NCBI GenBank assembly: GCA_910584085.1
Contig: CAJTZY010000001.1
Coordinates: forward strand, 51,830 to 115,829
Length of the DNA: 64,000 nt
Direction: 5' to 3'
From: an uncultured Bacilli bacterium
Lineage (GTDB): Bacteria > Bacillota_I > Bacilli_A > RF39 > UBA660
Below are positions 27,442 through 45,093 of the stretch, piece by piece. Both the position numbers and the translations under genes were made by a program. A model generated the notes under the pieces. That model was not told the DNA's origin. It saw only the letters and a program-made list of their open reading frames with translations, and made no database searches. Each line of letters begins with the position of its first letter. The stretch's first letter is position 1.

Positions 27442-28329
27442 TCAATTTTTATTTTTTAATATATAATTAATAAATTCATTACAACTATTGCTCAATATAT
27501 TATTTTTTAATGTAATAATACCATATGATATTCTAGGAGTTTTAGGAATTGTTTCAATAATAAATAGTTCTTTATTTTTTAATTCCTTTTCCACATATAA
27601 TTTAGTTACATATCCTATACCATAACCAATTTTTGTAAAATCAATAAGTAATGATGAACTTCCAATATTTAATTTAGAGTCGACTTCCAAATTATTTTCT
27701 TTAAATAATTTTTTCACACTAAAATAGGAATTAGAAGGCTCTTTCTGAAGTAATATTGGATGTTTTACTAAATCAATTAATTTCATAGGTTGTTTTAAAT
27801 TGTTATATAGTTCTTTATTAGCCACAAATTCATAAGAAGTATCTCCAATTTTGATAAAATTTAAATCACTTTCTAAATTATCTGGCAATTTACAAATTAT
27901 TAAATCAAGTAATCCATTTTGTAATAATTTAATATTATCTTTAGTTGTATCAGTATTAATTTCTATTTTTATATTAGGATATTTTTTATAGAAAGTATTT
28001 ATATAATCCATTAATAATCTTACTAAAGTAGTACTTATGCCAATTCTTATTGTTCCACAATAATTATCTTTATAATTTTTTATTTCATTTTCGACATTAT
28101 CTAATATCGTTAATGCATTTTTAATCTCTAAAAATATTTTTTGACCTATTGGTGTTAGAACAACACCTTTTCTTGTTCTACTAAATAATATAACACCTAA
28201 TGAATCTTCTAAATTTTTTATATGCTTTGTTATAGCAGGCTGCGATATATTTAATTCTTCACTAGCTTTTGTTATATTTTGATTAATTGCTACAATATAA
28301 AATATCCTATATAATTCAATGTTTACCAT
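27442..28329 (-). CDS. LysR-family transcriptional regulator
   Basis: N-terminal wHTH: ELYRIFYIVAINQNITKASEELNISQPAITKHIKNLEDSLG. Typical length of 295 aa. Confidence 0.9.
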   Translation of the reverse strand: MVNIELYRIFYIVAINQNITKASEELNISQPAITKHIKNLEDSLGVILFSRTRKGVVLTPIGQKIFLEIKNALTILDNVENEIKNYKDNYCGTIRIGISTTLVRLLMDYINTFYKKYPNIKIEINTDTTKDNIKLLQNGLLDLIICKLPDNLESDLNFIKIGDTSYEFVANKELYNNLKQPMKLIDLVKHPILLQKEPSNSYFSVKKLFKENNLEVDSKLNIGSSSLLIDFTKIGYGIGYVTKLYVEKELKNKELFIIETIPKTPRISYGIITLKNNILSNSCNEFINYILKNKN

Positions 28330-35176: not shown

Positions 35177-35980
35177 GTGATTCTCTTGAATATTTATAAA
35201 AGTTTAAATGAAATAACTAAATATATAGATGATAATTTAGAAGAAAAAATAGATTATAATGTTTTAGCAAAATTTTTGGGTGTGAATGCTTATACCATGC
35301 AGAGATTATTTACTATGATTGCGGGTATTTCATTATCTGAATACATTAGAAAAAGGAGATTATCTAACGCTGGATATGATTTATATGAAGGAAATTTTAA
35401 AATAATAGATATTGCACTTAAATATCAATATGATAGTCCTACATCATTTTCTCGTACCTTTGAAAAATTTCACGGTGTTAAACCCAGTTTAGTAAATAAA
35501 AAAACAAAACTTAAAAATTTTCCTAGAATAATATTTAATGAAGAAATTACTATTACAACTGAACTTGATTATGAAATAATAACTTTAGATAATATGGATT
35601 TATACGGAATAAGTATTTCTGTTAACAATAAAATAATAGGTGAAAAAGCCCCAATATTTTTTAAAAAAATAGAAAATAAATATAGAGATAAATATGGAGA
35701 AGTTAAGTATGGAATGATTACATATGATGTAGTTAGAGAGGAGAGTCAAAAATATTATTGCCTATATGACAAAGTTATTAAAGAATTTGAACATATTAAA
35801 ATACCACAAAGTAAATGGTTAAAATTTGTAATTAATTCACAAAAATCAGATGAAATACAAGATATGTCACATAAATTTTATAAAGAATTTTTACCGTCTT
35901 GTAAATATAATTTAAAAGAATTACCAGAACTGGAGTATTACCACGATAATATAACTGAATTTTTAATAGCTATATATTAA
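35177..35980 (+). CDS. AraC-family regulator with a GyrI-like effector-binding domain
   Basis: HTH region: LAKFLGVNAYTMQRLFTMIAGISLSEYIRKRRL...SPTSFSRTFEKFHGVKPS. The C-terminal ~150 aa is consistent with a GyrI-like fold. The start is uncertain (GTG 35177 or TTG 35186). Confidence 0.75.
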   Translation: MILLNIYKSLNEITKYIDDNLEEKIDYNVLAKFLGVNAYTMQRLFTMIAGISLSEYIRKRRLSNAGYDLYEGNFKIIDIALKYQYDSPTSFSRTFEKFHGVKPSLVNKKTKLKNFPRIIFNEEITITTELDYEIITLDNMDLYGISISVNNKIIGEKAPIFFKKIENKYRDKYGEVKYGMITYDVVREESQKYYCLYDKVIKEFEHIKIPQSKWLKFVINSQKSDEIQDMSHKFYKEFLPSCKYNLKELPELEYYHDNITEFLIAIY

Positions 35981-36857
35981 TTCTTTTATTCAAAATATTG
36001 ATAAATTTAGATACTGTAAAACTTGGTATAAAATTGCTTTTAATAGCATATCCAAGTTTTCTTTTTGGTATTTTTATGTTCGTTTTTATTTCAAATAAAG
36101 ATTTATTTAACCTATCTTCTATAAATTCTTGTGTCAAAAGTGCAATTCCAAAGTCATTTTCAGCGAGTTTCACTAATAAACCATGACTTGCAACTTCCAT
36201 TTTTGGATTACATGTCAGATTATTATCCTTTAAAAAAGTGTTAAAATTAACCCTTGTAATTGATGGAACTTTTTGCAGTAATATATCTTCATTTAACAAA
36301 GTTTCAACATTATTACAAACTTTATTTTTATATTTTTTACCTCCCACAAAAATATCATTTAAATTTGTTATAACTTTATAATTTATATCATTTATACTAT
36401 AATCTGGAACAGCTGTTATTATAATATCTAATGTTCCATTTCTCAAATTATTGATTAAAGATTCAGTTAAATTATTAGTAATATTAATAACTATATTTGG
36501 ATACTTACTATGAAATTCTTTTAAATATGGCATTAAATAATATTCTGAAATAGTTGTTGTAGACCCAATATTTATGACACCTTCATCTAAATTTTTTAAT
36601 GATGTAAATTTGTTAGTTCCATTAATAAAATAATTCATACCTTCTTTAATAAATTCAAATAATTCTTTTCCTTCATTTGTTAAAACAACCCCTTTTGGAG
36701 TTCTAATAAATAAGGTGCCACCTAGTTCATTTTCTAAAGTTTTAATAGACTGAGTAACAGCAGGCTGACTAATCATTAATTTTTCTGCGCCTTTTGAAAT
36801 ACTTTTTTGATTTGCGACTTCATAAAACACTTTGTATAGTTCAAAATTAATATTCAT
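35970..36857 (-). CDS. LysR-family transcriptional regulator
   Basis: MNINFELYKVFYEVANQKSISKGAEKLMISQPAVTQSIKTLENELG. GAGGAGGA precedes the ATG at 36857. The 409-aa ORF in the track is an unsupported 5' extension. Confidence 0.9.
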   Translation of the reverse strand: MNINFELYKVFYEVANQKSISKGAEKLMISQPAVTQSIKTLENELGGTLFIRTPKGVVLTNEGKELFEFIKEGMNYFINGTNKFTSLKNLDEGVINIGSTTTISEYYLMPYLKEFHSKYPNIVINITNNLTESLINNLRNGTLDIIITAVPDYSINDINYKVITNLNDIFVGGKKYKNKVCNNVETLLNEDILLQKVPSITRVNFNTFLKDNNLTCNPKMEVASHGLLVKLAENDFGIALLTQEFIEDRLNKSLFEIKTNIKIPKRKLGYAIKSNFIPSFTVSKFINILNKRINI

Positions 36858-36874
36858 GTTTTCCTCCTCTTGAC

Positions 36875-36889
36875 ATAAGTATAACTTAT
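36875..36889. promoter_or_regulatory. Candidate LysR box
   Basis: ATAAG-tataa-CTTAT dyad (it also contains the palindrome GTATAAcTTATAC) in the LysR/36964 divergent region. Confidence 0.45.
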
Positions 36890-36963
36890 ACTGCACATAA
36901 GAAATATATATTTGAATTATACCATACTTTATAATATAATACAAATCGAAAGAAGGAGATATT

Positions 36964-38112
36964 ATGAAAAAAGAAACAATCATGAAAATAATCAAATTCA
37001 AAATTGAAGAAGAAAAAACACCAAATGAAGATGAATTAATTGAATCTTTAAATGAAGGTTTTTCTGAACTATATGCTAATGATGTAGATAATATAAAAAT
37101 TGAACAAATTGAAATATTAATTAAAAAATGCTTAGAATTAAAATCAAAATTAAAAAAACAACAACATAGTGGGAAAGAAATATATAAACATTTTTGCAAA
37201 TCTAATAGTTGTAATCATCAAGTAAGGCAATTAAAAACAAAAATTGATGAAGATGATTGGTTTCCAACAAAATATTTAGAATATGACTGTGTATTTTGCG
37301 GACACTCCATTTCTGCAAATAAATCTAATCAAGATTGGTTTTATGAACGCTATTATAATAATTGTGTTTTTATTGAAGATGAAAATATTGATGTTTATAA
37401 ACTTATATTAAAAATATTAAAAGATAAAAAAGATAGTGATAATATTGATTTTGTGGAAGAATTTAAAAAATTAAATCTCGATTCTAGTATATGTACAATA
37501 ATTGATAAAATAAAACAAAACAATATTATGATAATAGATAGTATAGATAAAGATATTGATGATACATTAATTTTACTTGATTATCTTTCAAAAATTGATG
37601 GAATTAGAGTTCGACTTTTCTCAAGAAAAATTTATAGGCAAGATCATACTATATTCAAGATAGGATATTCATTTCCTAAAAAAATGAAACTTAATGATCA
37701 ATATTGTATTGTAGATGAATTAGAGAAAGATGAACAAAATCATATTCCATATAAACTAATCATTAATTTAGCAGATATGGAAGAGTATGAAGTAGAAAGA
37801 ATAATCCCGGCGTGTCTTTTGCCACACAATTGTAAAGACAACAACACTTATAAAATTGAAAAACCTGATTTTGAAAAAATAAAAGAAATGTTTCCAAATA
37901 GTATTATGATAAATATAAAGGAAGTAAATAAAGAAACAATAAAATCACTATTAACGACTATTAATGAACTCACAAACTGTTCATTAAATCAAGATGAAGA
38001 GTATGATAGTGTTAGTAGTAAAGTAAAAAAATTAACATATGATGATAGAAAAAAATGGGAAGAACACCTGAAAGAACTAGAAGAATATGGAAAAAATAAA
38101 AGTTCAAAATAA
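36964..38112 (+). CDS. Hypothetical protein (382 aa) with a zinc-ribbon-like Cys/His cluster
   Basis: AAGGAG RBS. Contains CKSNSCNH...(27 aa)...CVFCGH. The N- and C-termini are Lys/Glu-rich. No family recognised. Confidence 0.7.
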   Translation: MKKETIMKIIKFKIEEEKTPNEDELIESLNEGFSELYANDVDNIKIEQIEILIKKCLELKSKLKKQQHSGKEIYKHFCKSNSCNHQVRQLKTKIDEDDWFPTKYLEYDCVFCGHSISANKSNQDWFYERYYNNCVFIEDENIDVYKLILKILKDKKDSDNIDFVEEFKKLNLDSSICTIIDKIKQNNIMIIDSIDKDIDDTLILLDYLSKIDGIRVRLFSRKIYRQDHTIFKIGYSFPKKMKLNDQYCIVDELEKDEQNHIPYKLIINLADMEEYEVERIIPACLLPHNCKDNNTYKIEKPDFEKIKEMFPNSIMINIKEVNKETIKSLLTTINELTNCSLNQDEEYDSVSSKVKKLTYDDRKKWEEHLKELEEYGKNKSSK

Positions 38113-38187
38113 ACTGATAAAATTGATTATTAAAAAGTCAGTTTTTTTTGATTTTTATTTGATATATTTAATTAGAGGTGAAGACTT

Positions 38188-40038
38188 ATGTGGTTTACAT
38201 CCGAAATTTATTTAACTAAAAAGTATGTAACAAGAGACGAATGGTTACGCTTAATTAATATAATATCAAATTATAACGGAATTTTTAAAAATTGGAAGAT
38301 AATAATTACTAATGATAAAAATCAAATAAGATATTTTGTCAAATCTCGATGTAATCTTCCCACAACAATAAATAATTTAAATTCTCTTCTAATGAAACCA
38401 GTAAAAGATATATTAGAACCAAACTGCAATTATATAGGTTTATTTTTTCCAAAAATTGGTAGTAACATAATAGATTTAATAAATTATAATGAGATTAAAA
38501 ACAAAGGAAGATTAGTATACTTAGAAATAAATTTTTTTAAACTATATAAAGATAAAGTTAAATCAAAAGTTAAGTTTTATTTAAATCAAAATGGAATAAT
38601 AAAAAAATATAAAATTCCATTTGCGATACCTATTAATATATTATCTATAGATTTTGAAGGAAATAAAAGGTACTTTTATAAAAATGTTCCAAAATATTTA
38701 GAAATAAACAAAATACTTCATTTATTAAATACTGATACAAATAATGCATTACTTTCTATAGATACTTTTCCATATTTACAAGGAAATTTTTATCTGAATC
38801 AGAATAATTTTAATTTTGATAAACATTCTATAATATTTGGTTCCTCTGGAAGTGGCAAATCTAAACTTATAAGTTTGCTGATAAGTAATATTAACAAAAA
38901 TGAAATGATGAAAGAAAAATACAAAGTAGTTGTCATTGATCCACATGCATCACTTGAAAATGATATTGGTGGTATAGGCAAGGTTATAGATTTTCAAAAT
39001 AATTTAGATAATATTGATCTATTTATAAATAATATTGATGATATAATTGCAAATACTGAAACCCTATTAGATTTATTAAAACTGCTAATTAAAGACCAAT
39101 ATAATCCAAAACTAGAAAGAGTTTTAAGATATTCTATAAATCTATTATTAACAAATGAATCATTTAATTTTAAAAATTTAAAAAAGGTTATTTTGGATTT
39201 AGAGTATAGAAGCGAATTAATAAAAAAATTAAAATATAAACTATGTGTAAATGTTATTGAATTTTTCCTGTCAGATTTTAACGATTTAAAAACTAAATCA
39301 TATATGGAAGCAATATCTCCTATTATAAGTTTTATAGATGAAATGGAGATGTTACCTATATTTAATTTAGAAAACACAAATGAAAATTTGAAAACAACAA
39401 TACAAGAAAATTTTCTTACATTATTTTCACTTAATAGGACAAAGTTTGGAGATAAAGTAGCTAAAACGATATCAGGATTAATAATGCAACAATTATTAAA
39501 TATAATTGAGAGAAGGGAAATTAATAAACACATAATATTTATAATAGATGAAGTTGCAGTTATCGAAAATCCCATTTTAGCAAAATTTTTATCAGAAGCA
39601 AGAAAGTACAACTTATCTTTAATTTTAGCTGGGCAATATTTTAGTCAAATATCAGATGAACTTAAAAATTCAATATTTGCAAATGTCATTAATTATTTTA
39701 TATTTAGAGTATCAAAATTGGATGCGTCAATATTAGTTGATAATTTTAATATGAAAATACCTTTAGATGATTCAAGGGATAAAAAAGTAAAATTACTAAC
39801 AGAACTTAACAATAGAGAATGCATTGTAAGAATAGACTCTAATGGAATATTGCTCCCAGCTTTTAAAGCAAATACATTAGACTATACAAGCATTCCTAGA
39901 ATAAAAAGAACAATGATAAATAATAATACAGAAAATTTAAATAACAAAAAAAATTATAAACATAGTTTTAGTTTAAATACAAATGTGAGCTTAAGGGATA
40001 TTTTAATATCTAATTCTACAAATAAGAAAGGTGAGTGA
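38188..40038 (+). CDS. FtsK/HerA-superfamily P-loop ATPase (616 aa)
   Basis: Walker A IIFGSSGSGKSK, followed by VVVIDPHASLEN (compare the DPHGEY of HerA/DUF87). Walker B is IIFIIDEVA. The SEARKYNLSLILAGQYFSQI block matches the ARK/GRK..G....tQ block of HerA/TraD-like ATPases. The ~215-aa N-terminal region is unrecognised and has no TM helix. Confidence 0.75.
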   Translation: MWFTSEIYLTKKYVTRDEWLRLINIISNYNGIFKNWKIIITNDKNQIRYFVKSRCNLPTTINNLNSLLMKPVKDILEPNCNYIGLFFPKIGSNIIDLINYNEIKNKGRLVYLEINFFKLYKDKVKSKVKFYLNQNGIIKKYKIPFAIPINILSIDFEGNKRYFYKNVPKYLEINKILHLLNTDTNNALLSIDTFPYLQGNFYLNQNNFNFDKHSIIFGSSGSGKSKLISLLISNINKNEMMKEKYKVVVIDPHASLENDIGGIGKVIDFQNNLDNIDLFINNIDDIIANTETLLDLLKLLIKDQYNPKLERVLRYSINLLLTNESFNFKNLKKVILDLEYRSELIKKLKYKLCVNVIEFFLSDFNDLKTKSYMEAISPIISFIDEMEMLPIFNLENTNENLKTTIQENFLTLFSLNRTKFGDKVAKTISGLIMQQLLNIIERREINKHIIFIIDEVAVIENPILAKFLSEARKYNLSLILAGQYFSQISDELKNSIFANVINYFIFRVSKLDASILVDNFNMKIPLDDSRDKKVKLLTELNNRECIVRIDSNGILLPAFKANTLDYTSIPRIKRTMINNNTENLNNKKNYKHSFSLNTNVSLRDILISNSTNKKGE

Positions 40039-40042
40039 AAGA

Positions 40043-40741
40043 ATGAATGAAAATAAGGCACTAGAAATAATTAATAAAATATTTAAAGTAGTATTTAATC
40101 GTGATAATAATTATACATTAGAGGAGTTGCTAGAAAAATTTGCATTTGATATTAAATTACCAAAACAAGTAAATGATTTTACTACAAATGAGGTAACATG
40201 GGCTGATTCTATCAATAGTGGTAAATTTATTACTAATAAAAATATGGAAAAAAGAGACACTACTATTGGATGGATGCTTGAAAAGCAGGAAATAAATAAT
40301 TTACAAGAATTAATTGATATATGGAATACAATTAATTTAACTACAACTGAAAGAGTATACGATTCCATTAATGTAGTTAAAAGTGATACTATATATAGAT
40401 GTGAAAATGTTTATAGAAGTACTGACTCAAGAGATTCAAAAAATATAATTTATTGTGACTCTTGTGGAAATAGTGAATTTTTACTTGCGTCACAAAGATC
40501 TAATACTTGTAATTTTTGCATAAGATGTGATGATTCAAAAAATTGTAGCAATAGTTATAATGTTATATGTTCTAACAAAGTAATTAATTCTCTATTTATT
40601 CAGGATTGTTTTGATTTATATGAGTGCATATTTTGCTCCCATATAGCATCTAAAAAATTTTGTATAGCAAACATGCAATTTGATGAACAAGAATACTATG
40701 AAATCAAAGAAGCTATTATTGAGTGGATACTAAATTTTTGA
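40043..40741 (+). CDS. Cys-rich repeat protein (about 232 aa)
   Basis: The C-terminal 120 aa has Cys-containing units with ~13-residue spacing: CDSCGNS, CNFCIRCDDSKNCSNS, VICSN, QDCFDLYECIFCSH, KKFCIANMQFDEQEY. The start is 4 nt after the ATPase stop (ATG 40043); the GTG at 40031 would overlap it. Confidence 0.7.
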   Translation: MNENKALEIINKIFKVVFNRDNNYTLEELLEKFAFDIKLPKQVNDFTTNEVTWADSINSGKFITNKNMEKRDTTIGWMLEKQEINNLQELIDIWNTINLTTTERVYDSINVVKSDTIYRCENVYRSTDSRDSKNIIYCDSCGNSEFLLASQRSNTCNFCIRCDDSKNCSNSYNVICSNKVINSLFIQDCFDLYECIFCSHIASKKFCIANMQFDEQEYYEIKEAIIEWILNF

Positions 40742-40796: not shown

Positions 40797-40825
40797 TTGA
40801 CAATTTAACTATTTTTTAATATAAT
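40797..40825 (+). promoter_or_regulatory. Perfect-consensus sigma-A promoter
   Basis: TTGACA (40797-40802), 17-nt spacer, TATAAT (40820-40825), upstream of 40852. Confidence 0.65.
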
Positions 40826-40851: not shown

Positions 40852-42531
40852 ATGAAAAAAAACAAAAAAATAATTTTAATTGCAGTTATCAGTTTGATAG
40901 TTATATTACTTATAGTTGCAGCTTTATTTCTTCTAGGAAATAAAAAAGAATCATCAAAAAATGATGGGGAAGGTAACGTATTTAAGCGTATATATGCAAT
41001 GGATGGTGACATTTATTTTTCAGATGCAAATGGAAATATAACTATATTTAAAGATTTTGATAGAATAGGTAAATTCAATAATGATTTAGCAGTTGCTTCT
41101 AAACTTGTTGACGGTGAGAGAAAATATACAATAATAAATAAGAGTGGAAAAGAAATTGTAAAATTAGGAGAATATGATTCTATAGATGAGATAGATGGAA
41201 TAAACTATTTCAAAGTAGAAAAAGATAACGTATATGGTATTATTGATGATAAAGGGAAAATAATATTACCAATAGAATATGAGAAAATAAGTGTTTTTGA
41301 TGATGTATTTATATTTGAGGTAAGAAAAGATGGAAAATATTATTTACTATCACAAAATGGAAATACAATATACGAGTCAGAACAAACTAGTACAATAACA
41401 TCATATTACAAAAGATTTGATGAAAATTATGATTATCTAGTTAAAATAGGTGAAAAATATTATAATGCTAAAACTGGAGAACAAGTATTCAGTGATAGGA
41501 ATAGTATAAATTTTGAGTATAATGTATTATATGAAAACAAAAAAATTAGCTTATATGATAAAAATTTAAAATTAAAAACTGAAATACCAGATCAAAATGT
41601 AATTAATATGAAGGTTTATAAAACAAAATCAAATCATATTGTAATAATGGAAACAATACAAAATGGTGATAGTTCATATTATAAATATAGAATATATGAT
41701 GAAAATTTAGATTTAAAAAAGGAATTAACATCAACTACTGTAAAAAGCCTTTCATTTAGTCAACTGGGAGATGATTATTTCTTCATAGTTGAAAAAGAGC
41801 CTAATGGAACAAAGGATTCAAAATATACATTAACCTTATTTGATAAAAATTTAAAAGAATCAAAAAGGGAAAGTTCTCGTAGTATAAATGCTATGGTTAC
41901 TTCTAAAGGAGAGGTTGCTTTTATAGAATGTGATTATAGCAAAGATATAGTATCAATATATGATATAAATGGCAAAGAATTAGTAAGTATAAAGGATAGT
42001 AAAATAGAAACAAATTACAAAACAGGTGATTATATTGCATTAACCTTAACTAAAAATTCGCCAAGAACATATAATATCTACAATATAAAGGGGGAACTAG
42101 TTTCAAAAAATGTATCATATAAAGATCCACTTAGTGATAATATAATAAGTTTAAGAAGAGATAGTGGAGATAATTCAGTTATATTTGAAACTGGAGAGGA
42201 AATAACAAACAAAGATTATTACTTTACTATACATGGTGAAAGTATAATTGGAAACAATTCTAAAGAAAAGCAGGTTAAAATATACGATAAGGTAGGTAAA
42301 TTAAAAGCTGAATATTCAAATATCAACCAAATTACTAATTGTAGGGAAAAATATATACTACTAAGAGGAGATAATAAATATACTGTTTATAGTACAATAA
42401 GTAATAAACAAGTATTTGAATTTGATATAAGCTCATATAAAGATCAATATAGTGCCCAAGGTGTATATGTTATTGAACTTGAAGATGCTTTCTATACTTT
42501 TGAAGGTAAAAAAATAATAGATAAAAAATAA
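40852..42531 (+). CDS. Membrane-anchored WG-repeat (KWG-like) protein
   Basis: N-terminal TM helix (IILIAVISLIVILLIVAALFLL). Recurrent units of the type YGIIDDKGKIILPIEYEKI. Paralogous to 60797-62452. Confidence 0.7.
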   Translation: MKKNKKIILIAVISLIVILLIVAALFLLGNKKESSKNDGEGNVFKRIYAMDGDIYFSDANGNITIFKDFDRIGKFNNDLAVASKLVDGERKYTIINKSGKEIVKLGEYDSIDEIDGINYFKVEKDNVYGIIDDKGKIILPIEYEKISVFDDVFIFEVRKDGKYYLLSQNGNTIYESEQTSTITSYYKRFDENYDYLVKIGEKYYNAKTGEQVFSDRNSINFEYNVLYENKKISLYDKNLKLKTEIPDQNVINMKVYKTKSNHIVIMETIQNGDSSYYKYRIYDENLDLKKELTSTTVKSLSFSQLGDDYFFIVEKEPNGTKDSKYTLTLFDKNLKESKRESSRSINAMVTSKGEVAFIECDYSKDIVSIYDINGKELVSIKDSKIETNYKTGDYIALTLTKNSPRTYNIYNIKGELVSKNVSYKDPLSDNIISLRRDSGDNSVIFETGEEITNKDYYFTIHGESIIGNNSKEKQVKIYDKVGKLKAEYSNINQITNCREKYILLRGDNKYTVYSTISNKQVFEFDISSYKDQYSAQGVYVIELEDAFYTFEGKKIIDKK

Positions 42532-44292: not shown

Positions 44293-45038
44293 TTAATTCT
44301 TATTGATAGCATTTATAAATTCTGTAATGTATTTACTATTAGAATTCTTTTTATTAAAAGCTATTCCAATTTGTCTTGATGGTATCTGATAGTCTAGTTT
44401 TAATTCAAACAGTTCCCCTTTCTTGAAGATGACACATCAGATTGTAAAACGAGTGGAAGAGCAGTTAATTCTATAATACTAATTTTTTTCCCTTTTAGAT
44501 CATTATAGAAATTTGCATTTGCTACAAATACATCTTGTGTAGTTTCAATAATCTTATAATCTAAATTTTCATCTATTTGCACAGGCATATTAAATAATAC
44601 CAAATCTAATATATTATCACGCAATTTATTTAAAAGTTCAGATGTTATTCCCCTAATTATTTCTATTTTTATATTTGGATATTTCTCTTTAAATTTTTTA
44701 AATCCCTCCAAAGCATTATGCTTTAGTAAAGTATTGCCTCCACCAATTCTTATTGTTTTTATTTCTTTAGAATCGAATTCATCTAATAATCGTTTACAAT
44801 TATTTAAACATTCTATACTATTTTTTATATTTTGAAACAAATATTCTCCAGCACTAGTTAATTCCATACCTCTAGATGTCCTATAAAATAAAGTCATATT
44901 TAATTCGCTTTCCAATTTTTTTATCGTTTGAGTTATAGCAGGCTGTGAAATAAGCAATATTTCAGATGCTTTGGTAATATTTTTAGCTTTTGCAACATAA
45001 TAAAAGACTTTGTATAACTCAAAATTTATATTTTCCAT
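44293..45038 (-). pseudogene. LysR-family regulator, disrupted (frameshift plus internal deletion)
   Basis: The intact N-terminus is MENINFELYKVFYYVAKAKNITKASEILLISQPAITQTIKKLE. The frame ends at ...SSRKGNCLN*. The expected C-terminus (KGELFELKLDYQIPSRQIGIAFNKKNSNSKYITEFINAINKN*) continues in another frame. About 45 aa are missing relative to the paralogs. Confidence 0.7.
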
Positions 45039-45093
45039 GATATAATCACCTCTTATATCAGATATCAAATACTCGTATTTCAATTATATCGCT

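Follow-up and report, generated by a model that had tools for sequence, protein, structure and literature searches.

Do the genes at positions 36858-40741 of this stretch of AT-rich chromosomal DNA form one regulated system, and does that system defend its host against phages? The stretch analysed, 64,000 nucleotides (nt) from an uncultured Bacilli bacterium and hereafter called the window, has a G+C content of 22-30% across its length. At this site it carries a LysR-type regulator gene beside a dyad and, diverging from it, three same-strand open reading frames (ORFs) for proteins of 382, 616 and about 232 amino acids (aa), the second of them a P-loop ATPase. An initial annotation had described the divergent LysR gene, the dyad, the three ORFs and the ATPase motifs, all of which are present, and had joined them into a LysR-linked three-gene unit and candidate anti-phage system. 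Comparison with relatives shows instead that the region consists of two independent units: an inserted cassette of the LysR and 382-aa genes, and a conserved module of the ATPase and 232-aa genes. We consider it moderately probable that this anatomy goes together with a lineage-conserved cellular role for the ATPase/232-aa pair.

The two units were separated by DNA junction alignment. In relatives, the stop codon TAA of an upstream AraC-family regulator gene is followed directly by the hairpin sequence ACTGAC...GTCAGTTTTTT; in the window the same hairpin instead directly follows the stop codon of the 382-aa gene. The interval 35981-38112 is therefore a 2.1-kb insertion, made up of the LysR gene and the 382-aa gene, and because it is an insertion, the LysR gene is tied to the 382-aa gene rather than the ATPase. 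A species scan was made with one genome per species, and 80 loci were fetched. The 382-aa gene and an orthologue of the LysR gene were absent from all 80 species loci that carry the ATPase/232-aa pair; the only LysR genes in those loci were paralogues of 33-43% identity, lying elsewhere in five of them. Relatives on long contigs showed the order AraC/GyrI gene, ATPase gene, 232-aa gene, again without a LysR or 382-aa gene. In a collection of 5.8 billion proteins the ATPase had more than 2000 relatives and the 232-aa protein 1114 homologue clusters; the 382-aa protein had only 7 relatives.

These results bear directly on the proposal of one LysR-controlled system of zinc-ribbon protein, ATPase and Cys-rich protein. 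The shared strand and the short gaps between the genes, seen in the window and in one relative (L006; loci of relatives are given by L numbers), speak for it, but the LysR and 382-aa genes are missing from all 80 of the other species loci, only 7 members make up the 382-aa family whereas the other two proteins have over 1000 each, the cassette occurs elsewhere with NUDIX genes and without the ATPase, and a conserved hairpin and a separate promoter-like block stand between the 382-aa gene and the ATPase gene. We regard such a system as very improbable. Co-occurrence of the three genes, on which the initial annotation had staked the unit beforehand, broke down for the zinc-ribbon protein, with its few relatives and its own LysR cassette at other sites. 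The LysR gene goes with the 382-aa gene, whose product is no partner of the ATPase. Nor did LysR survive as the regulator linked to the ATPase: the conserved neighbour of the ATPase is an AraC/GyrI-like protein that lay outside the annotated unit.

Within the cassette, the LysR-type regulator (295 aa; 35970-36857, minus strand) matched Pfam HTH_1 at 6e-19 and LysR_substrate at 7e-23, and the 3' end of its gene overlaps the AraC stop codon by 11 nt. It diverges from the 382-aa ORF (36964-38112, plus strand), the cargo of the cassette. The LysR box at 36875-36889, read directly from the sequence, is a perfect dyad, ATAAGTATAACTTAT, that fits T-N11-A. Its form ATAAG-N5-CTTAT and a downstream promoter-like block are conserved in L006, L008 and L011, where the 382-aa proteins are only 29-77% identical; the intergenic region is kept even at a protein identity of 29-35%. 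A divergent target gene and a T-N11-A dyad are both present, which makes this a divergent LysR regulatory unit with the dyad as its putative operator. The relatives of the 382-aa gene always adjoin a divergent LysR gene (L006-L011), and they occur in two contexts: at the same AraC/ATPase spot in L006 and L007, and in unrelated loci with a NUDIX gene and without the ATPase.

The 382-aa protein is an orphan. It had no match in Pfam, NCBIfam, PADLOC or the Protein Data Bank (PDB), and a comparison of its family profile with solved structures returned nothing meaningful. The annotated Cys/His cluster, CxxxxCxH...CxxCxH, was borne out in part: CNH...CxxC stands, with C83, H85, C109 and C112 invariant in the six aligned relatives, but the first Cys of CxxxxC is not conserved. 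The four invariant residues probably form a CHCC zinc site. We picture this first unit as a LysR gene divergent from the gene of an orphan protein with a probable zinc site; the unit would be served by its own T-N11-A operator and has entered a variable spot. A 409-aa ORF with a TTG start (35970-37199, minus strand) is an over-extended call of the cassette's 295-aa LysR gene. Three LysR-type paralogues that share a near-identical N-terminus (NINFELYKVFY...) lie in the window, all on the minus strand: the cassette gene at 35970-36857, a second at 27442-28329, divergent from an HD_4 gene, and a third at 44400-45083, which is truncated (212-227 aa), lies beside a Fic gene and a 94-aa CoaE fragment and is probably a pseudogene.

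Where the AraC stop codon meets the hairpin, the inserted cargo varies between loci, and this junction is a hot spot. Other cargo was found there at L006:842-4016, L070:5925-8159, L076:3257-4336, L081:6607-8153, L082:7072-8160 and L088:5254-8150. The first five of these loci carry a transglutaminase-core-like gene of 309-322 aa, joined in L070 by an extra 344-aa gene; the cargo of L088 is a radical-SAM gene, a methyltransferase-like gene (named from sequence alone) and a membrane-protein gene. No integrase or transposase adjoins the insertion spot. The spot offers a small, clean example of site-specific gene gain in these genomes. The transglutaminase-core-like gene (L006:3017-3946, L070:7150-8088, L076:3330-4259, L081:7132-8100, L082:7154-8095) always stands immediately 5' of the ATPase gene on the same strand, with the hairpin after it, and in some lineages the module might include it as an optional third component.

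The second unit, the ATPase/232-aa module, has a much wider distribution than the cassette. RF39-type Bacilli are widespread, uncultured inhabitants of the human and animal gut with reduced genomes. Relatives of the 232-aa protein were found in at least 410 species genomes, all of uncultured low-G+C gut Bacilli, which bore the labels Bacilli, Tenericutes, Mollicutes, Erysipelotrichaceae, Candidatus Coprovivens or Firmicutes CAG:582. Of these, Candidatus Coprovivens has been assigned to family CAG-1000 of order RF39 (PMC8035907). The ATPase gene lay directly 5' of the 232-aa gene in all 80 gut-Bacilli species loci, with an AraC gene upstream in most, and the partner gene was directly 3' of the ATPase gene in every locus examined. 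In the window, the 232-aa ORF (40043-40741, plus strand) starts with the ATG at 40043, 4 nt past the ATPase stop codon as had been annotated, and its ribosome-binding site (RBS), AAAGGTGAG, lies within the 3'-terminal codons of the ATPase gene. In this layout the 232-aa gene is translationally coupled to the ATPase gene.

The pairing extends beyond the gut species. In about 37 metagenome loci, with G+C contents of 23-59%, a 232-aa homologue lies directly 3' of a distant ATPase that is about 30-35% identical to that of the window, and the pairing is thus much older than the gut clade. The most distant group of loci has housekeeping genes for neighbours: recA, recX, rny (RNase Y), an aminoacyl-tRNA synthetase gene, dnaG and the genes for L21 and signal peptidase. 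Still more distant loci have tandem-duplicated or multiple 232-aa-like genes beside the ATPase gene. Among distant loci (L138:5386-10358, L139:189-5521, L161:346-9094, L143:5086-8134) the partner occurs as whole-protein tandem duplications of 518-528 aa and as up to four paralogues of 570-620 aa around one ATPase; others have a convergent gene for a 295-aa protein that consists of the repeat domain in two very Cys-rich copies. L138 and L139 adjoin a gene for a YGR210-type Obg-like GTPase, which suggests an archaeal origin for these two loci. The labels used here for the environmental loci, archaeal or similar to candidate phyla radiation (CPR) organisms, were suggested by sample names, a 794-kb contig, an archaeal-type S-adenosylmethionine synthetase and the YGR210-type GTPase neighbours. 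As far as libraries and literature searches show, the ATPase/232-aa module is undescribed.

The ATPase (616 aa; 38188-40038, plus strand) carries the motifs GSSGSGKS, VIDPH, IIDE and SEARKYNLSLILAGQ. In an alignment of 79 sequences with 23-78% identity, G218, G221, G223, K224, D251, P252, H253, D454, E455, R472, K473 and Q483 were invariant, as was an Asn of the core; R472 and K473 are the Arg-Lys of SEARK. The hallmarks of the HerA/FtsK superfamily are a Walker A motif GxxGxGK[ST], a Walker B motif hhhhDE with the catalytic Glu, an arginine finger and a RecA-like core, and its members form hexameric rings that translocate polymers. Searches of Pfam, NCBIfam and PADLOC with the three proteins gave domain matches for the ATPase but none for the 382-aa and 232-aa proteins. 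In Pfam the ATPase scored above the cut-off for DUF87 (38.5 bits; cut-off 23.2) and TrwB_AAD_bind (28.6; 20.5) and, at 21.7, just under the cut-off of 22 for TraG-D_C. The PADLOC matches, of which the best was mad8 (3.6e-16, residues 207-505) and another HerA (8.5e-11; HerA models, residues 185-259), were partial and fell on the P-loop region. The NCBIfam scores were far under their cut-offs: 47 bits against 600 for CedD, 18.6 against 366 for the TraD model TIGR03743, and 13.9 against 800 for NF042943 HerA_antiphage. The phage family phrog_5156 matched at 2e-17.

An AlphaFold model of the ATPase had a predicted local distance difference test (pLDDT) score of 89.6 and a predicted template-modelling (pTM) score of 0.82. 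In the model, a beta-rich N-domain reaches from residue 1 to about 205; the core is RecA-like and contains an all-alpha, TrwB-like insert (about 286-400), and the tail (566-616) is poorly ordered. A Foldseek search of solved structures gave Sulfolobus HerA (4d2i) as the best match at E 2e-13, TrwB at template-modelling scores by target (TMt) of 0.63-0.67 and the DptH C-terminal domain (7es4) at TMt 0.68; the HerA proteins of the Sir2-HerA and DUF4297-HerA complexes were also returned. By motif and by fold the protein belongs to the HerA/FtsK superfamily (additional-strand, catalytic-glutamate (ASCE) P-loop proteins; DUF87), and the HerA/DUF87/TraD branch named in the initial annotation agrees with the Pfam and Foldseek results. 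It is a new family of that superfamily, between the HerA and coupling-protein branches. No transmembrane-like segment was found in the 382-aa, 616-aa or 232-aa protein, and the Kyte-Doolittle maximum of the ATPase over 19-residue segments, 1.52, falls on the Walker B strand; by this measure the ATPase is soluble, as annotated. By analogy with its structural relatives it would assemble into a ring, and it would be expected to hydrolyse ATP, the Walker A Lys, the Walker B Asp-Glu and the SEARK Arg-Lys being invariant.

The tail of the ATPase (residues 566-616; 39883-40038 in the window) had pLDDT values of 49-72 and ends in a motif, F...L..I....ST.RK, that is kept in the gut clade and in some other subfamilies but is lacking from the short subfamily whose members stop near residue 570. 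This peptide may serve in partner docking or in regulation. A 205-aa ORF antisense to the ATPase gene (38994-39611, minus strand) is an artefact, which matches 82 loci only by shadowing the conserved ATPase gene.

The 232-aa partner has a conserved N-domain (residues ~1-103), Ser/Cys/Asn-rich repeats (~104-213), a CxxC...C knuckle of C195, C198 and C207, to which C168 is added, and a C-terminal helix. Among the 120 matches listed, nearly all homologues were 231-234 aa long. In a diverse alignment the C-terminal block EC.FC......C.AN.Q...EY..K.....W was near-invariant, and only four Cys of the family were invariant: C168, C195, C198 and C207. Cys and Ser exchange across relatives in the repeat region, which has 5-14 Cys versus 12-27 Ser, with a near-constant sum of about 27-32 in about 110 residues, and a net charge near zero. 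The ~13-residue Cys repeat unit of the initial annotation could not be recovered: the family profile matches itself off the diagonal only once, weakly (E 0.064) and with a 57-residue offset (3 x 19), and the Cys are largely Ser in relatives. The repeat region probably folds as a beta-solenoid capped by a small Cys knuckle. Cys as metal ligands throughout the repeats were rejected, as Cys and Ser exchange freely and only four Cys are invariant. A second idea, that the protein mimics DNA (a Qnr/MfpA-like acidic helix, prompted by the GyrI-type regulator), found no support, the net charge of the repeats being near 0.

The initial annotation had left the 232-aa protein unassigned, and this was upheld: the tightly coupled partner belongs to no described family. 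It matched no family in Pfam, NCBIfam or PADLOC, and its family profile gave nothing meaningful against solved structures (PDB). A phage family without assigned function, phrog_15341, matched weakly in 15 of 31 diverse members. Among gut species the protein is more conserved than the ATPase, at 74-88% versus 52-79% identity.

Upstream of the module in gut Bacilli lies the AraC-family regulator gene, which in the window occupies 35177-35980 on the plus strand. Its start is uncertain between the GTG at 35177 and position 35186 (the 264-aa call), giving a product of 264-267 aa. Pfam HTH_18, GyrI-like and Cass2 match the 264-aa product in the window and in relatives. Rob-like AraC/GyrI proteins combine an N-terminal AraC double helix-turn-helix with a C-terminal GyrI-like ligand-binding domain, and this is the architecture found. 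Orthologues were present in 64 of 81 relatives' loci, directly 5' of the ATPase gene in 58 of the 64, and an AraC/Cass2/GyrI gene was upstream in 10 of about 12 loci of a second, more distant gut-type group.

Between this gene and the ATPase gene, the window has an AAACTGA direct and inverted repeat followed by a T-run (38111-38150, plus strand), identified in an alignment of 75 upstream regions, and then, in conserved alignment columns, a putative extended -10 element, TGATATATT (family consensus TGnTATACT), with the RBS GAGGTGA (38160-38181, plus strand). About 70 of the 75 regions share the repeat block AAACTGAC-AAAACTGATT...AAAAAGTCAGTTTTTT, TGnTATACT, the RBS GAGGTGA and the start codon. 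The AAACTGA repeat is near-invariant, including in loci with inserts and in two loci that have no AraC gene. As RNA it forms a weak hairpin with a U-run (-5.7 to -8.4 kcal/mol; z-scores -1.2 to -2.4), which probably acts on the upstream gene as a weak intrinsic terminator and may double as an operator. A generic terminator scan missed this hairpin, and a generic promoter scan, with 54 sites versus 59.9 expected, was uninformative in DNA of 24% G+C. The conserved TGnTATACT would be a separate extended -10 promoter of the ATPase operon. Judged from adjacency, the operon is probably under AraC/GyrI control in gut Bacilli. The second unit runs from a Rob-like AraC/GyrI gene through a terminator-like hairpin and a putative extended -10 promoter to the bicistronic operon of the ATPase and 232-aa genes.

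One gut species (L175:12701-15278; L176-L182 have the same genes) carries a second AraC/Cass2 paralogue at a distance of about 6 kb from the module; it adjoins a 570-aa ABC exporter gene and has MFS, APH-like and GNAT genes nearby. AraC/Cass2-type regulators in these genomes are typically paired with efflux or detoxification genes. An association of the module with ABC transporters, which the window and L143 had suggested, was rejected: an ABC ATPase gene lay within three genes of the pair in 5 of 81 gut loci and in 0 of 47 metagenome loci.

Whether the pair is mobile or cellular was assessed from its occurrence and its flanks. No member of the 232-aa family turned up in 50,697 phage records, 72,556 plasmids or the 2.9 million viral contigs of IMG/VR; tblastn found no phage relatives of the ATPase or the 232-aa protein, and the ATPase had only remote plasmid matches. 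In one species, 23 contigs from different samples had the pair at the same site, in the order PP2C-like, APH-like, AraC, ATPase, 232-aa and GDPD genes. In species pairs that share flank orthologues, median flank identity was 68-75%, and in those pairs the ATPase stood at 72% and its 232-aa partner at 82-84%. Because the pair is absent from the mobile collections, keeps a fixed site within a species and diverges in step with its neighbours, the evidence points to a chromosomal, vertically inherited pair. An integrase gene was near the pair in only one locus. The commonest families in the nearest flanks were GNAT, HD, NUDIX, Fic and methyltransferases, mostly small and of metabolic or detoxification type, and no enrichment of the pair in defence islands was seen.

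The pair could nonetheless be a new two-gene anti-phage or anti-plasmid system, in which, as Sir2-HerA and DUF4297-HerA suggest by analogy, a HerA-like hexamer would sense or thread foreign DNA and the repeat protein would be the sensor or effector. Its best PADLOC matches are defence-associated ATPases (mad8 and HerA), the closest solved folds include the HerA proteins of the two analogous complexes, the two genes form a tight operon and the neighbourhoods differ between species; a few candidate defence genes occur in the flanks, and L005 has SLFN/AlbA and PBECR-type neighbours. Against this, the PADLOC and NCBIfam matches cover the P-loop only and are far below cut-offs, the locus is fixed within species and diverges like its neighbours, the pair's 232-aa family was not found in the phage, plasmid and viral-contig collections, and distant relatives have housekeeping neighbours and the commonest flanks are GNAT, HD, NUDIX and methyltransferase genes. 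No effector domain can be recognised in the partner, and its conservation exceeds that of the ATPase, the opposite of what an arms race would give; because it is so highly conserved, a role as arms-race effector is disfavoured. We think a defence system unlikely. Set against what generally marks such systems, a place in defence islands or on mobile elements and a patchy distribution through horizontal transfer, the pair gives a divided picture: its absence from the viral and plasmid collections, its fixed site and its divergence speak against, and its non-syntenic flanks and a few candidate defence matches speak for. The anti-phage function proposed in the initial annotation is possible but unsupported by the searches made, with no PADLOC system match, no occurrence in the mobile collections and flanks mostly of metabolic or detoxification type.

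The pair was also compared with known defence systems. It is like Sir2-HerA (Nezha) and DUF4297-HerA in having a HerA/FtsK core with a beta-rich N-domain (fold E 1e-12 to 1e-10) and a two-gene operon with a non-ATPase partner. It differs in its partner, which is not Sir2 or DUF4297 and lacks any known enzymatic domain, in the HerA_antiphage score of 13.9 bits against 800, in TM-scores of only 0.33-0.47 with a root-mean-square deviation (rmsd) of 12-17 Å between the HerA proteins of those systems and the ATPase, and in being vertically inherited at a fixed locus and not found on mobile elements. The C-terminal ATPase domain of DptH/DndH gave the highest TMt of all (0.68, 7es4), and Mad8, of the eight-gene MADS, gave the best PADLOC profile match (3.6e-16 over residues 207-505), but in both cases the likeness is confined to the ATPase domain: no dptFG, dnd/ssp or mad1-7 genes, the last including a methyltransferase, are adjacent here, where the neighbours are the AraC, LysR and 382-aa genes and the WG-repeat protein gene. 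The MADS paper does not describe the domains of Mad8.

HerA-NurA end resection offers a further comparison. In that module a NurA nuclease gene stands beside HerA, usually with Mre11 and Rad50. The likeness lies in the fold, HerA 4d2i being the best Foldseek match at E 2e-13, and in the arrangement of what would here be a soluble ring translocase with a partner encoded alongside; some distant loci of the pair are also next to recA and recX. Unlike HerA-NurA, the pair has no gene for NurA, Mre11 or Rad50 in its vicinity, its partner protein is made of repeats and lacks a nuclease motif, and the ATPase has a TrwB-like all-alpha insert.

Another possibility is that a conjugative element or a phage module left the ATPase behind as a coupling-protein or VirB4-like remnant, with the 232-aa protein as cargo or accessory. 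The pair would then translocate a protein or DNA-protein complex, or serve a domesticated mobile-element function. Pfam matches to TrwB_AAD_bind and TraG-D_C and the presence of TrwB among the best folds favour this, as do matches to large Bacillus phages (folds at E 2.6e-20, phage G gp156 at 7e-17, phrog_5156 at 2e-17) and the several 232-aa paralogues around one ATPase in some distant loci, which are reminiscent of substrate sets. However, the ATPase has no transmembrane anchor, and three flank surveys found no relaxase, VirB4 or type IV secretion system (T4SS) gene among the commonest families. An integrase was seen in one locus only. The TraD and T4SS equivalog models scored far below their cut-offs, phage G has no 232-aa-like neighbour and the 232-aa family is missing from the viral and plasmid collections. 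We judge a conjugative or phage remnant to be quite improbable.

The comparison with type IV coupling proteins (TrwB/VirD4/TraD) showed likenesses and differences: TMt values of 0.63-0.67, an rmsd of 5.5-7 Å and a TrwB_AAD_bind score above cut-off join the ATPase to them, whereas it has no N-terminal membrane anchor, no relaxase or T4SS genes in the surveyed neighbourhoods, a TIGR03743 TraD score of 18.6 bits against 366, and a 200-aa beta-rich N-domain that is absent from TrwB. The initial annotation had reported no relaxase, T4SS, NurA or Sir2 gene nearby, and none was found in the window neighbourhood or among the commonest flank families of relatives; Mre11 and Rad50 were likewise absent from the window neighbourhood and, in three surveys, from the commonest flank families. 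A look for conjugation gene sets around ATPase homologues gave the same result, with no T4SS or relaxase among the commonest flank families.

The best folds overall belong to large Bacillus phages: proteins of 800-900 aa with functions still to be assigned (phage G gp156, the 'MsbA-like' protein of phage JL, phrog_5156) matched at E 2.6e-20 with query-based template-modelling scores (TMq) of 0.53-0.59. Phage G gp156 is a distant relative of the ATPase, matching the family hidden Markov model (HMM) at 7e-17. These proteins differ from it in their extra N-terminal regions, and no 232-aa-like gene lies near gp155/gp156 in phage G. A Campylobacter phage locus, CPt10_1641, where a CxxC-repeat protein is encoded beside a 728-aa P-loop protein, was rejected as the same pair: the P-loop protein misses the ATPase HMM and the repeat match is compositional.

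For a vertically inherited pair of this kind, a role of stress or DNA-maintenance type is more likely than membership of a mobile anti-phage island gene set. In the account that we favour, the 232-aa protein would be an obligate non-enzymatic partner that interacts with the ATPase as adaptor, substrate selector or effector; the substrate would most probably be nucleic acid, and in gut Bacilli expression would probably be gated by the AraC/GyrI regulator in response to a small molecule. A more novel reading, which we hold to be less likely than not, is that the pair is an unrecognised cellular machine, a HerA/TrwB-type ring motor with a solenoid-like, Ser/Cys-rich partner bearing a Cys knuckle, whose role would be other than defence, conjugation or end resection. 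One candidate function would be the remodelling of nucleic-acid or nucleoprotein complexes in response to xenobiotics or stress, and selection would have kept the machine in several small-genome lineages (RF39-type gut Bacilli, diverse CPR-like environmental bacteria and perhaps archaea).

Several observations weigh against the favoured account. Characterised bacterial two-gene modules with a HerA-type ATPase are mostly anti-phage. The 764 flanking genes fell into 538 clusters, of which only AraC recurs, and the flanks differ in almost every species; such variable flanks would also fit an accessory module in variable genome regions. There are scattered single matches in the flanks to candidate defence models (PDC-S04, S05 and S23, mad2/3 and a type II nicking endonuclease). 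An AlphaFold model of the 232-aa protein, made with 16 close homologues, had a pLDDT of 37, and the solenoid reading draws on sequence periodicity and the one weak self-match (E 0.064). Environmental relatives have no AraC gene. Because the hairpin separates the operon from the AraC gene and persists in the two loci without AraC, we infer AraC control from adjacency only.

Maintenance of the pair at 74-88% partner identity across at least 410 species, and its presence in distant lineages, suggest that it matters for RF39-type biology. Neither protein is named, and the 232-aa partner is without any family. If the pair were an immune system, it would be an unusual one, being vertically fixed; if it is not, it would add a new partner class and a new role for HerA/FtsK-type motors. 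The right experimental unit is the AraC, ATPase and 232-aa genes, or the latter two, and not 36858-40741 with the LysR gene.

The window's own neighbour genes were not found beside the ATPase/232-aa pair elsewhere. Downstream of the pair the window encodes a WG-repeat membrane protein, the Fic protein, the truncated LysR, the CoaE fragment, dxs and pyk. The first of these genes adjoins the pair in no other locus. Its product (559 aa; 40852-42531) has WG-containing beta-repeats and an N-terminal membrane anchor, and a perfect sigma-70 consensus (TTGACA, 17 nt, TATAAT) lies 5' of it at 40797-40825.

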